Part shown: piece after piece, positions 4,600 to 59,765 of the stretch | Layout: each line of letters opens with the position of its first letter | Position numbering within the stretch: the first letter of the stretch is position 1 | Source of the DNA: Octopus vulgaris | Lineage: Eukaryota | Direction: 5' to 3' | DNA length: 64,000 nt | Assembly (NCBI GenBank): GCA_951406725.2 | Contig: OX597815.1 | Location: forward strand, 94,922,001-94,986,000 | Position numbers and translations under genes: made by a program | The notes under the pieces: generated by a model | The model's input: the letters and a program-made list of their open reading frames with translations, nothing else | The model's database searches: none | What the model was told of the DNA's origin: nothing

Positions 4600-6060
4600 A
4601 TGTGTTTACATATAAGAAAGTTCGACTATTACAGAATAGAAATAATATCAGGAATTAAAGGGGTTGAATAAAAGTTTTACGAGTTCAACAGCTGTTCCTG
4701 GGGCCTGGTGATCCAAAATAATAATAGTTAATTGATTCCATCATCGGATAATACCAGGCTCCATCTTCAGGGAAGAAGTTTTACATCTGTGGTGTTGACA
4801 GAAAGGAGATTAAAGATGGTATGATTTTGTGGAGAATTAAGTGTTTTAAGCAGAGTAACGAGATGAGAAAATAAATTTCAGGGTTAGGGGTTGGTAATGA
4901 GGCTAGTAGAAAGTCATAGTGGTAGAGGTTGAAGGTGGAAGGAGGAAGGAAGGGTGGTTTAGGTAGTATGTGAATGGTAACCTTTGTGTTAGTTTGTATG
5001 AAGACTATAGATTTAAAGGTTGAAATTGTGAAAATGGGAATGGTCATTATTTGAGGGAAATATGTTGATGGGTTCAGTGGTTGAAGGAGATTAGTAAGGC
5101 ATGTAGAGAGGTATGAGTGAAGATAGATGGGGATAGAATGGGGGTTGAGTAAGTGGTCACAATAGCAGTTGCTAGTGGGGCAAAGGAATTGGGTTGGTAT
5201 TGGAGGAGTGTGTTATGGTATGAAGAGGTGTATTAAATTGAATAGAGGGATATGTATAAGGAGGGGAAGATGTAAACTGATTAGTTTTCAAAGGGGTTGG
5301 GTAGTGTTAAGCACCTTTGAAGTTGGGGAGGGTGGCGAGGCTAAAAGGAAAGTGGGAAGTAGTGGATTAGAAGAATTTGGAAATGAGTGTACGAGAAAGA
5401 ATGAGAGGTTAGTATTTTTTAAGTAGTAGGTTGCTAGGCTGACTTTGTCTTAGTTTAAGGTTATTTGGGGTATAGATACTTAAAGTTATGGGATTATATA
5501 GATTTAGTAAAGTGCGTGAAAGATGACTAGTTCTTATGTTTACAAGCATAAATTACACCACAGAATCGATTAAGTAATGAGGAAGTATGAAGGCGAAGAA
5601 TGGTTAATGATTCTTTCTGACATATCTCAGACTCATTGATATTTGCATTGCATGGAGGGTCCTCCCTTACTATGGACTAGGATCGGGTGTAAGGAATGTT
5701 TTGAGATTTAATGTCGTGTATATAAGTTGCTAAAGAGGATGATAATTTAGAATTTGCATTAGAGAAAGAATTCATGTATGCACGGTAGCGGCGCTTGAAA
5801 TCTACAGTAACGCCGATATATACATTTGCCTGTTGGGAGTGCGGTGTTATAACACGGCACGTGTAGACTGCATGTTTACGTAGACAGAAGCCTCCAAGAG
5901 GGCGTGGTTAAGAAATCCGACATTTGCAAATTTTCCTAAATACTCCATGGTTGCAGTTTACTGCTAGAGCGGTTGAGCCCCGTTCGTTCACTGTTAGTGG
6001 GAGAAAATCTGAAATGCAAGCTGTATTAGTATTGGATTCGGAGGTGACATTGCAGCTAGT
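4600..6060 (-). mobile_element. Decayed Penelope-like element 3' portion: GIY-YIG endonuclease, 3' region and pLTR
   Basis: Minus strand 5930-5690 translates (with a frameshift) CKCR...PLGGFCLRKHAVYTCRV...VYIGVTVDFKRRYRAYMNSF...SSLATYIHDIK, a PLE GIY-YIG signature; HHR motif near its 3' end. Confidence 0.8.
4684..4774 (-). ncRNA. Type I hammerhead-like motif with long stem II (degenerate)
   Basis: ttcc-CTGAAGA-tggagcctggt...accaggcccca-GGAAC-agct-GTT-gaa; palindromic stem III ACAGCTGT; A13G change and shortened stem I. Confidence 0.7.
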
Positions 6061-6099: not shown

Positions 6100-6365
6100 T
6101 TAGCATAATTATACCTAATGTGTCCATCTGTTCTAATTTAATTAAGTTTTATGTCTTTGTGCAGCTGAAGATTGCTCTACATTTTAAATTGATGTAATGA
6201 TTGCATTGTTCAATTAAATGGAATTGCATGAAACGATCGTACTGCATTACCTCTGGATATCCTTGTTGCTTATTCTGATTTTAACCACCTTATTTTGAAA
6301 TTGTATGGATAATACCGTACCAAATTCTGGTGCCTCAACTTAAGTACCATATTCATCTGAATCTA
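6100..6365 (+). mobile_element. Short HHR-bearing repeat (pLTR/retrozyme-like), family shared with 24590-24960
   Basis: Aligns to both arms at 24.6-24.96 kb (aaattgatgtaatg.ttgcattg, atccttgtt, cctcaacttaagtacc); bounded by microsatellites. Confidence 0.75.
6160..6246 (+). ncRNA. Type I minimal hammerhead ribozyme, extended stem II, GUA cleavage triplet
   Basis: tgcag-CTGAAGA-[about 58-nt hairpin]-GAAAC-gatc-GTA-ctgca; perfect 5-bp stem I, canonical core, palindromic stem III ACGATCGT. Confidence 0.85.
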
Positions 6366-9011: not shown

Positions 9012-12000
9012 ATCCAAGAATCGAGGTGCAGGAAGACAGTTAGCTTCAAGCAAACCGTAGTAAATAAAAAAAAACGCTTTTCAGGGACAATAATGGTTTA
9101 TTGAGACGAAAGGTTGCGGATTTTCTTCTTGTCGAAGTTCGATAAATTGAAAAGAGTTCTATTTATATTTCACGGTAGGCAACCAGGGCTATCGGGTATG
9201 CGAATAAGAATACAAGAGTTAAGGAAAAGAATATATAAGATCCGGACTACATATGTTTCATAGCGAGCGGAAACTCGGAAGTGGTAAATATCCGAGCGAG
9301 GTGTATACCGTGGACTACTAATACAAAAAATATTTATATCCAACTTAACGTGGACGTGTTCTAAGAGCACCGAACTTTGCGTCATTTATCTTGAGAGAAC
9401 CTTTTATATGAACTCGTGGGGTAAAGAGCATATTCATTTATATCACTGGCAGACGAAAATCATCCGTTATGGGCGCCGCCGGAGATGCCAGATCACGGGA
9501 TTTCGACGTGCCTTGTCTCTTCAGTGACAGACGTCCGGTAGCCGCATGCAATCAAATTTCACTGCCAGCGATATATGGATATTTTTAGTGATCGTTTATG
9601 CACTGATATCGCAAATATCAAACAGGGTTACTGAAAAAAAATTAATAGCAACAGCAGCAGTATCATTACAAAAAGGCAATCTTTATATTTCAACTTGATG
9701 TGGATGCATTGTTAAAACGCCGAAGCTAGGAGGACGTGGTCTTGGTTATCTGTAAATGCCTAACTTTTAAAACCATGCATTACTCATAATTGATTTGTGT
9801 ATAAGCAGGACTTTTGAAGATAATGCATTTATATAAAATATTCTTATTTTTTCGATGCATACATTTATAAATGCTTATTTATTAAAATAAGTCTCCATTT
9901 TACCCCATAATTAACACATTTATTCTTTAAAACACACTTTCAGTTTTAAAAGGATGGGAGGAATACCTGCCAGGTGTCATAAGGAATGAAGTTGAATTAG
10001 CATAACAGGATATTCTTCACTTGCGTTTTATTTCATAAGCAGGAAGAAAATTTAATTCCAAAAGACATCAACGTGATTAAATGTGTAAAACAATGCAATT
10101 ATACATTCACAGCTCCAAAGGGTTTTAAACAGGAATTGGCTTGTGTTACCATGTAAACCACAGCAATTGAATGCTATCCAACAGAGCGATGAAAGAAAGG
10201 GATTAAATTGGAAAGGAAGAAGTTAGAAACCTCGAGATGTGTTACTGCGGAGATGGCAAGCAATGTAGGAAGACAAAGCCAATTGTAAAAGCTACATAAT
10301 AGACGGTGTTAATTAGCAGAGCAATTGCGATAGAATTGCTGGCGAATCAATAATTACAAATAGACTGAGAACACCATCAAATCATCTGTGAAAACAAAGG
10401 CATAGTCGTTTGAGAACAGCAAACAAGGGAGACATTCAGAGAGGCAAAGCTGTTGAACGTGCTCAACAAACGAAAAGATGCTTCGTATTAAAAGTTTAAA
10501 TAGAACTGAATGCCTCTCTCTCTCTTTCTTTATCTCTCTCCTGTGTATACACACGCACACATATATACACAAACACACACATATACATGTATATGTATGC
10601 ATGTATGTATAATGTTATATGTTAGCGATAAGGACCTGAATGAGTGCATCACTACGACAGCACTGGTATCTCAGTATGGTACTCATATAAAACAAAAGGA
10701 GTATAGTACTGGAATACCAGTAGTTCTGTGCTGGTGAGTTCATTCCGGCCTTATGTTACCCTTTAAGTAAGGTCACTCATAAATTCAACTGCTGAAAAAA
10801 CTTTAGTTTAGTACTAGTATGTTTGAATCCGGTACAACCTGTTACATAGTCGAGTTGCAAGTAATTCAACCGGTATCACCACGAAGCAGCCTTGGTGTGA
10901 AACGTTTCTAGAAATTGACTACAACAAAAGCACCTGTCAAAAGATCAAATAAAATCTCATAGAATCAATATTTACTGTAGCAATAGTGCGAGAAGAAAAA
11001 TATTCGAGATCATACCACAAAACTGTAAAAAATCATCAAGCTTAAAAAGAAGTGACACCCAAAACTATAAGAAATTTACACAACACTGGCTTACAGAACT
11101 CTCATCCCTCCCGCCACAATCCACATAGACTATTATCTACATAATCATTACCCTTCACACGCAATAGAACATGCAACGCATACGAAATGCAATCACCACA
11201 TAACATAATAATACAACTCACATAAAGCATCTTTATTAGAAAGAATATAGTACTAATTAAGACTATCGAAATTAAAACAAAGCCCATAATTAAAAGAGAC
11301 TCAGAGACCTAATGTTATCCTGACTAGCATCGAATGGGGCCTTCTGACTGTTGTGTTCTCCGGCCTAAATGCTCATACTGAGAATAGACATCTTTATGCA
11401 GGCTATCTTGCATAAATATGTCTATTCATCCCAGGTGAAAATAACCCATTTACTTGTCAGGAAATTTACTGCAGAGCACCATCTCTCCCTGTACCGCCAC
11501 CTTCCACATTAAATTAATAAGGGCTTTCTCGAGGAACAAGCTGTATGTCCTTAGAAATTGTGAACAACAGAACAAGAAAATTTCATGTTTTTCACAGACT
11601 AATGAATGTGGCAAGACCGTTCTTACAATAAATTCGGATACATTCTACATGCGACAACAGCTGTTCAGCAAGCTCCATATGTCGGCGTACTCACACACTG
11701 AGTGAGTGTGAAAAGGTTCAAATGAACGTGACTTAAGCTTTTACTTTATCTTCAGTAGAATTATCTCGAGCATTAAAATATAACTCCCCAATCAATTTAC
11801 CTCGTCCAAGCTCCTAACTCTGGAGGTCTGGCTCAAACCAAGGACCATCATTGCAGAGGCCCACATTACTGCCACACATGACTTTGCCTCTCCAATTTCC
11901 GAGTTGATGTATGTATGTATGTATGTATGTATGTATGTATGTATGCAATGTGTATGTGTGAGTGTATGTGAGCGCGCGCATCTGTGTATGTATTTGTGTG

Positions 12001-24505: not shown

Positions 24506-24588
<83 letters not shown>

Positions 24589-24589
24589 G

Positions 24590-24959
24590 ATTAAGTTTCA
24601 GTTGAATTAGGTACTTAAGTTGAGGAAACAAGGATGTCAAGGTATTAGGGCATTACGGCTGTTTCCAGCAGCTCCATTTAATCGATAAATGCACGCATTA
24701 CGTCAATTTGAAATACACCGCCTTCCTCGGACGCATAAGACCATATAGGTGTTTAACATACAGGATACTCCTTTATAAATTTTTAGCAAACTTTTCATCA
24801 GAACTAGAGAATAAAAGAATTACATGTCTGTTGCTATTATTGTAGTTATAAGAAATGCGGTGTGCTTCAAATTGATGTAATGCTTGCATTGATCGCTTAA
24901 GTGGAGCCGCCTGAAACGGCCGTAATGCACTAATTCCTTGACATCCTTGTTACTTATTT

Positions 24960-24960
<1 letters not shown>
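24590..24960. repeat. Inverted pair of HHR-bearing repeats (HHR 24649-24735 minus, 24841-24929 plus)
   Basis: Arms 24625-24722 and 24857-24953 are reverse complements; GAAAC-(a/g)gcc-GTA-atgc in each; flanked by (TA)n. Confidence 0.8.
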
Positions 24961-25014
<54 letters not shown>

Positions 25015-25247: not shown

Positions 25248-25291
<44 letters not shown>

Positions 25292-25294
<3 letters not shown>

Positions 25295-25407
25295 GTCCAT
25301 ATCACGTTGAAAGCACTGGTTCTCGTCCGATCACCGAAGTTAAACAACGTCGAGCCTACTCAGTACTTAGATGGGTAACCGTTTGGGAAACCTAGGTGCA
25401 GTAAGCA
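25292..25407 (+). pseudogene. 5S rRNA-derived sequence (pseudogene or 5S-headed SINE)
   Basis: tacgtccatatcacgttgaaagcactggttctcgtccgatcaccgaagttaaacaacgtcgagcc...agtacttagatgggtaaccgtttgggaa...ggtgcagtaagc matches metazoan 5S; first bases missing, no oligo-T terminator, solitary copy. Confidence 0.9.
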
Positions 25408-28210: not shown

Positions 28211-28559
<349 letters not shown>

Positions 28560-55689: not shown

Positions 55690-56130
55690 ATAGGCCGAAT
55701 CTTAAAGGTCAGCTAAGGACAATCGCACGTGTAACCAGCCAAGAAGAACAAATCAACAGTACAAAGAAATCAAATGCAAATTCTTTTAAAACGGCATCCA
55801 ATTTAACAGTAGCAGAATCACCATCCCACTACATCTGCACATTCAAAGGAGTTTGCCAAAGGCCCTGCACCAACAGAGCACCCTGATAAGCTCAGTGACT
55901 ACCATTAAATTCAGCCAAGGATTTTGAACATGTGTAGAGAATATTTACTTATCACTTGAGGAAATACAATTAAATATCATAAACGAGGGAAACGGTTGCA
56001 TAATCAAGTACCTGCACACCTGGAGAACTACGCTGCGTAGAAACAATTGTAGTGATTAAAAAATAAATGTCCAGCCTTACCCCTTCTATTTGACACCAAT
56101 TTTATCAATTATCTATTCATACACGACTAA
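55690..56130 (+). mobile_element. Decayed LINE 3'-coding fragment; near-identical to the insert at 58782-59060
   Basis: NIINEGKRLHNQVPAHLENY parallels FFSSTGPALFNIVPREIK of the 45.9-kb LINE. Confidence 0.5.
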
Positions 56131-57868: not shown

Positions 57869-59765
57869 GCCAGAAAACTACGAACAGCAGCAACAAGCAA
57901 AGCGAGAAAAACAACAGCAGCCAGGAAATCATGAACAGTAAAAACAGCAACATCAGGAAGAGACGCTCCTAAATTCTATCAAAATAACTGATCTACTGAA
58001 CGATAGTATCTCGTCACCTCTCTCTCACTCACCACTCTCACAGCAGCCACCACAATTATCATCGTCGTATCTTCATCGTCATCATCACCGCTGCCATCAT
58101 CGTCTTCTACCAGCTCAAATACAAAATATAAACCACTGCTTTCTTCTCCCACTTCGCCACCTCAATGTAAAAAAAATCTAAAAAAAAATCAATGACGTGG
58201 AATGTGTCGCCCACGAAACCCCAAAATATGCCGTTATTCCCAAAGCACGCGAAGTGACTGCATCTTTACACATCTACCTGGCACTAGACGCACAATCCAG
58301 ACAAGCACTACCAGCCATGACCGAAGCACGCATCCCACAATTACATCAATATCAACACCACCAAATAGTAAATTGAATGCTAAAACACGTATAACACGGT
58401 ATCCCAGAATCTGCTGGTATTCCAAACGCATAACATGTCTGTTGTGTGACTGTCTCTTCACTCTCTTCCTAGGACTCGACGCACTAACAGAAAGGGGGCT
58501 CCACGCCAACACAGAAAGCCACAGTAAAGACACTGCCTACTGTAGTAATGCTGGTCCGGACTTTTCATGAAGACACAAAACCAGTCAAAACCTGCCACTA
58601 CGCTAGCGTCCACATTTCTACTCAATGCACAAGGTGTCAGTCTCTCCATCAATGCACAAAAATGAAACATCAAATTCATTGAGAATTGGATTGGTATCCA
58701 TCCACATCACATCCCTTTCTTCATTCTTACTGAGACCCATCTTGGCAATTCCCCGAAAGTGAAAGTGAGGAATATCACAACAGTAGTTCTCTAGGTGTAC
58801 ATGTACTTGATTATGCAACCGTTTCCCTCATTTATGATATTTAATTGTATTTCCTCAGGTGATAAGTAAATATTCTTTCCACATGTTCAAAACCCTCGGC
58901 TGAATTTAATGGTAGTCACTGAGCTTATCAGGGTCTTCTGTTGCTGCAGGGCCTTTGGCAAACTCCTTTGAATGTGTAGATGTAGTGGGATGGTGATTCT
59001 GCTACTGTTAAATTGGATGCCGTTCTAAAAGAATTTGTATTTGATTTCTTTGTACTGTTGAAGTGAAAGTGAGGAATTTCACAACCATCTGCGCAGATCG
59101 AGTCGACAGAAGGAAGGGTGGAACTACCAATTTCCTGTATGATTCCTTTTCGGCAGATGGGAATATGACATTCTCCAATAGCTACTGTGAATCGGTCACT
59201 GTTCACATCAAAACCAATGACCTGATAATAGTTGGGCTGTATAGGCGTCCTCAAACACCCATACTGCGCTTTAATGAATGCTTCAACAGCATTAAGTGCT
59301 TTATTCAACAGTGCCGTTCTAATAACACAATTATGATGGGAGATTTTAATCTACCCTGTGTTGATTGGTCAACAGTTTGAAATCAGGCACTCCCAGCTCA
59401 ACTACTAACAAAGAAGCAGTAGTCACTTCTCGACTTTATGAATGAGTTTTTCTTGTCCCAACGTGCCCTTGCACCAACAAGATATCAGAACATTTTAGAC
59501 CTTGTGCTTAGTAACTACACTAACATAATACACAATGTTTCAGTGAAAAAAGCCCTTCTTTCAGACCATGACATGATTCTCTGTTACCTGAGATTCCACC
59601 AGCCAATAGTTAACCCTAGTGACCTCTCTCCAGCTCACCCATTTGATACCATGGATCTCTGGGATGCCGACTGGGTTGCAATCATAGACGATCTATTACA
59701 TGCTGACTGGTCTTTCACACATACACACGTCACTGCTGAAAACCCTGAAAAATCCCATACCAGGG
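57840..59765 (+). mobile_element. CR1-group LINE 5' portion: ORF1 Cys/His remnants and APE endonuclease, interrupted
   Basis: PKICRYS...DCIFTHLPGT; LLNAQG, LTETHL, DRVDRRKGG, LYRRP, MGDFNLP, PTRYQNILDLVLSN, SDHD. Confidence 0.88.
58782..59060 (-). other. 279-bp inverted copy of 55754-56032 inserted in the LINE endonuclease with a 25-bp direct duplication
   Basis: aagtgaaagtgaggaat(a/t)tcacaac at 58757-58781 and 59061-59085. Confidence 0.9.

Follow-up and report, generated by a model that had tools for sequence, protein, structure and literature searches.

Background

Hydra-clade Penelope-like elements (PLEs), Hydra-1_Obim among them, have been described as carrying a single ORF with RW(K/R), DKT and YRDD motifs, a CxCX5C linker and, at the C terminus, a GIY-YIG endonuclease, as targeting (TA)n, and as having a type I hammerhead in the pLTR, an inverted 5'-truncated arm and an optional tail (Craig et al. 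2021, PMC8557442). All of these features recur in the elements described here. The role of hammerheads in PLEs was called unclear in that work. Minimal type I hammerheads have also been described in PLEs of metazoans (Cervera and de la Pena 2014, PMC4209133). They likewise reside in pLTRs, have a short helix I and a weak helix III with a palindromic loop, and occur in many sequence families per genome and in opposite-strand pairs 100–700 bp apart; they were reported to have low activity as dimers. In the green anole, which harbours the Poseidon element PAc (Frangieh et al. 2024, PMC11167929), two internal starts of reverse transcription make the tail, both strands of AT-rich DNA are cut, and the hammerhead, located at the pLTR-ORF junction, is protein-assisted. 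Animal non-LTR retrozymes (PMC7229834; bioRxiv 10.64898/2026.07.22.740005) share with the elements studied here a type I hammerhead and a relationship to PLEs.

We analyzed a 64,000-nucleotide stretch of Octopus vulgaris DNA (the window), in which a sequence-only reading had pointed to a hammerhead with a long stem II near position 6100. We consider it quite probable that the sequence at this position is what is left of a Hydra-clade PLE, a dead tail truncated on its 5' side, and that its predicted hammerhead, with a stem II of 58 nt, cuts only a minority of element RNAs, probably as a dimer or with the help of a protein.

Predicted hammerhead in the window

The 5'-truncated 3' end (pLTR) of a Hydra-clade PLE, here called family A, was located by its sequence at 6105..6365 (plus strand), and was linked to an ORF via three other loci (L076, L119 and L138). 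It is a single arm with a 'long' 3' end, flanked by (CA)n and (TA/TC)n repeats, as had been noted of the microsatellites adjoining this unit. Within it, a type I hammerhead is predicted at 6160..6246 (plus strand) from the core pattern, a covariance model and covariation. Stem I is formed by TGCAG (6160–6164) and CTGCA (6242–6246), the core CTGAAGA occupies 6165–6171, and GAAAC (6230–6234, with GAAA at 6230–6233) is followed by the palindromic loop GATC (6235–6238) of a 2-bp stem III and by the cut triplet GTA (6239–6241), with the predicted cut after 6241. The layout proposed from the letters alone (tgcag-CTGAAGA-hairpin-GAAAC-gatc-GTA-ctgca) was thereby confirmed, and the motif has the type I core CUGANGA, GAAA and NUH with stems I–III. 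Stem II (6172..6229, plus strand, 58 nt) consists of a U.U at the base, which is known to be tolerated at this position (PMC3088659), a 3-bp basal helix, an irregular middle helix and a distal hairpin. Its length alters the geometry relative to the canonical loop 1-loop 2 contact of hammerheads.

The motif scored 96.7 bits with a covariance model that includes the window copy itself. In single-sequence folding, the hammerhead was not the minimum-energy fold (z -1.08) and cost 4.1 kcal/mol more, and none of the three copies in the window gave a significant result (z -1.08, 0.68 and 0.90). In an Rfam scan of the window, no hammerhead family was present among the best 150 of 176 matches (E up to 1).

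Identity of the element

The genome searched comprised 2.8 billion bases in 227 contigs. With the window copy as a query, 3,427 first-look candidates were found, and the best 39 other full-length matches were 94–96% alike and dispersed. All but one of the 29 other family-A loci examined extend at least 20 nt farther upstream than the window copy, and 7 of 30 extend more than 450 nt upstream of its start. The '260-bp repeat' seen by the sequence-only reading is therefore only the length to which this copy was truncated. The 5' ends of family A range from approximately -137 nt to over -6 kb, and the longest copies reach into an ORF. In L076, a broken ORF with DKT, RT motifs, the CxCX5C linker and GIY-YIG is continuous to the family-A end, and L119 and L138 likewise join this end to an ORF. 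Approximately 3 kb of AT-rich untranslated sequence, made of roughly 830-nt repeats that are 66% alike, separates the broken RT and GIY-YIG gene from the family-A hammerhead, and the element is over 6 kb in length. A long Asn/Asp-rich low-complexity stretch lies between RT and endonuclease in L076 (4080-4676, minus strand) and is typical of the Hydra ORFs of this group; it accounts for ORF sizes of up to 1,091 aa.

A protein search for related ORFs, in which the best 150 of 4,051 candidates were scored, yielded many open frames of more than 900 aa. Among 20 loci, five (L121, L122, L124, L125 and L136) had a 66–72% homologue of the window unit just 5' of the ORF; intact ORFs of 941, 976, 1090 and 1091 aa were directly preceded by homologues of 66–68%. 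In L122 the homologue is present at both ends, 98.6% alike, and direct pLTR repeats with a hammerhead were found in this locus as well as in L121, L131, L133, L134 and L139. Among the loci examined, none showed family A with a 5' pLTR of its own. In six elements the predicted cut lies 188–211 nt 5' of the ATG; thus, what follows the cut in the window copy is equivalent to the next unit's 5' untranslated region, an arrangement also known from the anole element (PMC11167929). L133 and L134 (family M) are intact elements of 960 aa, in which the stem II insert has 85 nt, stem I is weak and the cut triplet is GUC. We also observed clusters of regularly spaced Hydra copies (L127, C29:29.57-29.69 Mb and C4:130.84-130.97 Mb), which probably sit inside larger tandem duplications.

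The marks by which the Hydra clade is defined (section 11 of PMC8557442) were examined in these ORFs. By motifs, a single ORF contains RT followed by a C-terminal GIY-YIG domain (broken in L076; intact in L122, L124 and L125), and the endonuclease of L076 matches that of L122 at 56%. DKT was found in 11 of 12 ORFs longer than 700 aa, the twelfth being N-truncated, and the long ORFs have RIRW followed by K, R, A or L. Eleven of the 12 long ORFs, as well as L076, have the CxCX5C linker, which is absent in a further family, K. CxxC and CxH occur near the endonuclease end, and CCHH was absent as judged by eye. A TA repeat was located no more than 14 nt from the 3' end in 39 of 52 family-A arms and 21 of 37 arms of a second family, B; of 30 loci inspected in each of the two families, 8 in A and 10 in B had an inverted 5'-truncated arm. 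Pfam gave no RT match for three intact ORFs and only a weak GIY-YIG match for the L076 fragment (E 0.01), and a search of solved structures with the family-K ORF returned only noise. The class was therefore assigned by comparing motifs with the Hydra alignment in the literature. The element class is well supported: the segment at 6105–6365 is very probably a Hydra-clade PLE tail. A decayed GIY-YIG remnant of an older, different Hydra-type element (5509-5994, minus strand; ~30% to the intact ORFs) sits 110 bp before the family-A copy on the opposite strand.

The sequence-only reading had offered two interpretations, solo pLTRs or a retrozyme-like non-autonomous family, and had suggested that an autonomous PLE with this pLTR be sought. 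Such a PLE is now indicated by the three loci linked to family A and by the sister families with intact ORFs. The solo pLTR interpretation was close, the copies being more exactly 5'-truncated 3' pLTR ends of an autonomous-type Hydra PLE. The absence of coding sequence from the units holds for the copies in the window and fails for the long copies, which carry the RT-EN ORF. It could be argued that a ~260 bp retrozyme spreads via small circles, as the unit has a type I hammerhead with a palindromic loop III, exists in thousands of copies and lacks an ORF in the copies within the window, and as retrozymes derive from pLTRs (bioRxiv 10.64898/2026.07.22.740005). However, none of 30 A loci and none of 30 B loci had a second hammerhead in head-to-tail orientation within ~1.5 kb on each side (of 30 loci from a third family, C, two had a same-strand motif of another family), the 5' ends vary over kilobases, and long copies hold the RT-EN ORF. 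With no head-to-tail motif, no fixed unit and a coding parent, the element is not a retrozyme as this class is defined in the work cited (PMC7229834), and we regard the possibility as very remote and largely refuted.

Families and covariation

When 144 near-complete motifs were clustered, A (52), B (37) and C (34) emerged as families, along with smaller groups. When 22 copies spanning 8 groups were aligned, 89.7% of cells were paired in the hammerhead model. The covariation score was 0.452, compared with 0.241 +/- 0.015 for shuffled alignments (0 of 500 as high) and 0.08–0.11 for slid controls; the shuffle control ignores relatedness, and the structure was drawn from the same sequences. Four of 5 pairs in stem I, 4 of 6 at the base of stem II and both self-pairs of loop III had changed on both sides; the self-pairing loop sequences were GATC, GGCC, AATT and GATT. 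Support for the middle helix of stem II was only partial (2 of 5 pairs compensated). Unprompted, RNAalifold recovered stem I together with two parts of stem II, its base and its distal hairpin. G5, A6, G8, G12-A14 and the cut triplet were invariant in 22 of 22 aligned copies.

The decay of individual copies gave a different picture. In the 52 family-A copies, deviation from the majority was 3.2% in the core, 3.7% in the stems and 3.4% at other positions. Since core, stems and the rest deviate alike, genomic copies decay neutrally, and therefore selection acted during transposition, on the source lineages. Selection on structure, which had been proposed from the three copies in the window, thus stands between families, whereas for single copies in the genome we rejected it. 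As a copy, the one in the window is an unremarkable fragment in decay.

Two of the three proposed copies lie at 24.6–24.96 kb. Matches of the window motif to 24605-24745 (minus strand; 66%, E 3e-13) and 24866-24958 (plus strand; 78%, E 3e-16) are far above chance, so that the reported homologues are real. They belong to one family-B insertion, whose back-to-back arms are 24588..24850 (minus strand, located by homology; long 3' end, internal deletion in the tail) and 24851..24965 (plus strand, short 3' end). The three homologous segments therefore represent two insertions. The minus arm contains a family-B hammerhead detected by the covariance model (24646-24738), with the core CCGAGGA and several decayed pairs. 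This core, in which position 4 is C instead of U (U4C), had been overlooked. The inverted partner begins inside the core, without CUGA, and retains the 3' strand of stem II, GAAAC (24913-24917), GGCC and GTA (24922-24924). The other differences that had been read here are all the majority state of family B: the inner pair of stem I is U-A instead of G-C, the stem II base is AGGCGG/CCGCCT and the loop is GGCC. The base patched across the two copies is therefore correct. Family B was linked to an ORF at one locus (L137). Two further features lie in this part of the window: an isolated full-length 5S rRNA match beside a TA repeat (25289-25407, plus strand, 85.4 bits), which is a gene, a pseudogene or a 5S-derived SINE; and near-perfect short inverted repeats around (TA)n runs, two in tandem (28341-28546), possibly a small microsatellite-targeting element.

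Ends of copies and traces of cleavage

The 3' ends of copies are bimodal: relative to the cut, they lie at approximately +33 to +44 or at approximately +110 to +165, and most of them precede (TA)n. No end between +60 and +109 was found in 52 A arms or in 34 resolved B arms. At 15 of the 16 loci with two arms, one arm has the short and the other the long 3' end; the A loci were chosen for a long arm, and the B loci, which were not, show this pairing in 6 of 7. In the window copy, the position at which the short arms of the family stop corresponds to 6275..6285 (plus strand), which is likely to mark the first start of reverse transcription. Loose read ends at 6279-6280 were seen in raw RNA reads of another organism. 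A possible second helix has its 5' strand (TTAAGTACC) at 6340..6348 (plus strand) and its partner just before the ATG in intact elements. In a test with 7 sequences, 2 of 11 of its pairs were compensated, and 16 of 500 shuffles scored as high, a weak indication that the long 3' ends fall inside the loop of a helix closing just before the ATG.

At the 5' side, 18 junctions fell exactly at the predicted cut, compared with 1350 copies that read through it (~99%). Two upstream control sites gave 3 vs 762 and 6 vs 1093 (together 9 vs 1,855), an excess at the cut of ~2.5-fold (Fisher p 0.009 raw and 0.023 with the 16 checked independent events), where the junction calls carry 1–3 nt of ambiguity. 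Addition of +4 as a third control site (7 matches, of which 4 were true truncations) gave p 0.013, whereas a site at -2 (11 matches) was left out of the test because 7 of its 11 junctions could equally be read as +1 starts. For 8 of the 18 cut junctions, the mapped inverted partner arm is also at or after +1 (2 of these 8 being duplicates of one event), and for 4 of 18 the adjoining inverted sequence derives from upstream of the cut. A search for cut-site junctions in the young family F yielded 1 match. The excess at +1 hints at some cleavage in vivo; alternatively, it could reflect stalling of the RT at a tight fold.

We also inspected three runs of raw RNA reads from another organism (X21-X23). 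Family-A-like reads were present on both strands, no pile-up of ends occurred on 6100-6362, and no read joined back across the cut, with only old copies represented; family K, which was covered by contig set X1, a set that may derive from something other than RNA, was not present in these runs. A search of sequencing runs listed no RNA data set containing the sequence.

Taken by analogy to the anole element (Frangieh et al. 2024), these ends suggest the following scheme. The RT-endonuclease would nick both strands of a TA repeat, reverse transcription would be primed at two internal RNA sites (~+38 and +120 to +165), and the two sites would yield two arms and a variable tail. The templates would mostly be uncut tandem transcripts or re-closed circles, so that the cDNA would pass through the hammerhead, and a few cut RNAs would give the copies starting at +1. 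We thus infer slow, partial cleavage with internal priming at two sites.

An efficient ribozyme in the same element is the first alternative to be weighed. In this case, unit-length RNA would be excised and circularized by ligation, and copying would continue beyond one full turn, so that the cDNA would regain an intact hammerhead, as in the circle-copying model put forward for metazoan PLEs (PMC4209133). Intact elements do begin upstream of their own 5' hammerhead, pLTR pairs are 98–99.6% alike in young copies, and the core is kept in nearly all families. On the other hand, the anole element inserted in vitro without a need for cleavage, according to the experiments described (PMC11167929), and back-joined reads were lacking, although in RNA of another organism and for old copies; an activity-reducing core is, in addition, the majority state in two families (see below). 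We consider efficient cleavage possible and rather unlikely.

The U4C core variant

According to published work (PMC3088659), U4C lowers hammerhead activity in vitro considerably, yet a viroid carrying it stays infectious. Position 4 is C in 36 of 37 family-B copies and U in 30 of 34 copies of the sister family C. The first two stem II pairs of the 37 family-B copies are GA/TT (5), AA/TT (4), AG/TT (4) or AG/CT (17), and family C has GA/TT with U4. Compared in this way, stem II of family B has passed through compensatory steps while position 4 was already C.

When the genome was searched for the C4 pattern, 1,304 matches were obtained, compared with 513 for the control, and these led to family K. 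A young, intact Hydra-like element of this family (L139:2963-6612) has an endonuclease linker without CxCX5C and has recently spread. Its 778-aa ORF is intact and lies between pLTRs that are 99.4% alike, and copies of the family are 95–99.6% alike. The core CCGAAGA was found in 23 of 23 K motifs from 12 loci selected for C4; genome-wide, the family had 513 C4 and 148 U4 matches, and those with U4 may represent a subfamily of greater age or products of CpG decay. In an RT tree of 20 rows, built with elements of this genome only and with one short row dropped, B grouped with A and H at a support of 90, and K was joined to M (support 100). Therefore, U4C arose twice, and two lineages kept spreading with a core change that probably weakens cutting. 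This dominance of C4, in 36 of 37 copies of B and by 513 to 148 in K, is the further point against an efficient ribozyme.

The same observations bear on the possibility that the fold has been conserved chiefly as a platform to which the element protein binds or with which a second RNA pairs, with cutting being incidental. The compensatory changes in family-B stem II, which arose with C4 in place, and the read-through of the cut site in ~99% of copies fit this explanation. However, a platform does not agree well with the invariance of G5, A6, G8, G12-A14 and the cut triplet in all 22 aligned copies, nor with the small excess of 5' ends at the cut, and U4C leaves enough activity for a viroid in vivo (PMC3088659). 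We find a mere platform doubtful.

Long stem II across the genome

Plain pattern counts were made for three classes of insert between the core and GAAAC, and some matches overlap between the classes. Inserts of 52–64 nt gave 19,178 matches genome-wide, compared with 234 for a reversed control pattern; inserts of 8–30 nt gave 8,230 (control 505) and those of 65–94 nt gave 7,774 (control 504). In the families linked to an ORF, the stem II insert is 51–85 nt. Many of the long inserts are unrelated to each other in sequence. Among 40 hand-picked, dissimilar long-insert matches, stem I had at least 4 bp in 15 (4% expected by chance), the stem II base had at least 3 bp in 27 (17% by chance) and loop III was self-pairing in 29 (20% by chance); a Hydra protein match within 1.5 kb was found for none of the 40. 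Searches restricted to a short stem II would miss most hammerhead motifs in this genome.

The window contains two other motifs. A decayed long-insert hammerhead with an AATT loop (55948-56059, plus strand, 20.6 bits, E 0.012) is located within an inverted repeat (55753-56031 / 58783-59061; 279 nt, 95% alike), which is probably another two-armed PLE insertion. A short hammerhead-like pattern with a 13-nt insert and a 5-bp stem I (9483-9532, minus strand) may be due to chance.

A more far-reaching idea, which we offer tentatively and think improbable as a whole, is that the pLTR hammerhead of octopus Hydra elements is a deliberately slow switch, its cleavage rate having been tuned down by selection, with uncut or re-closed RNA as the template. 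Under such a reading, stem II would have grown to a structured domain of 50–85 nt in many unrelated families, and U4C would have been fixed twice in lineages that were still spreading and still repairing stem II. If this were the case, the natural U4/C4 pair in the young family K would make the purpose of PLE hammerheads directly testable. Independent of this idea, the genome supplies young elements with intact ORFs, many structural variants, the U4/C4 pair and a record of where copies start and stop. Slow, partial cleavage with two-site priming remains our preferred explanation.

Comparison with known systems

The literature searched yielded no account of hammerheads with a long stem II or with U4C in the PLEs of cephalopods, and supplements, Repbase and Dfam may hold these families; the main text of a 2026 octopus repeat annotation contains neither 'hammerhead' nor 'Hydra'. 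The anole element belongs to another clade, and its cut lies 26 nt after the start codon (PMC11167929) instead of ~200 nt before it; its mechanism was demonstrated in that study, whereas ours is inferred. Retrozymes are non-coding head-to-tail repeats of 150–450 bp in the descriptions cited above, whereas the copies studied here are dispersed truncations of a coding element. At the level of the motif they can be similar: helix III of the axolotl retrozyme Amex2 also has 2 bp, and the basal pair of its helix II is likewise U.U.

The metazoan PLE hammerheads described by Cervera and de la Pena (PMC4209133) have a helix II of 6–8 bp with a conserved G10.1-C11.1 pair, whereas those described here have a domain of 51–85 nt, the base pair of which is U.U, A-U, G.U or G-C. 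Among Hydra-clade hammerheads listed by Craig et al. (PMC8557442), several share with the present ones the base 'core-U-UGC...GCA-U-GAAA' with U.U. In these listed motifs, however, the distance from core to GAAA is 12–26 nt as counted by eye, compared with 51–85 nt here, and none has C4, which is present here in families B and K. According to the same source, Hydra-1_Obim has a different hammerhead with an 8-nt loop 2 and is 2.5 kb in length, whereas family A exceeds 6 kb; the tail of Hydra-clade PLEs is 30–40 nt, compared with ~80–125 nt here. A long stem II in PLEs is not without precedent, as the spike-moss PLE-X1 hammerheads have ~48–54 nt between core and GAAA and were marked as deviating from the canonical structure (PMC8557442). 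These, however, are two families of endonuclease-less, rDNA-targeted elements in a plant, whereas we observed tens of thousands of motifs, with covariation in the arm, in an animal. The long arm and the repeated U4C change are thus variants of a known system.
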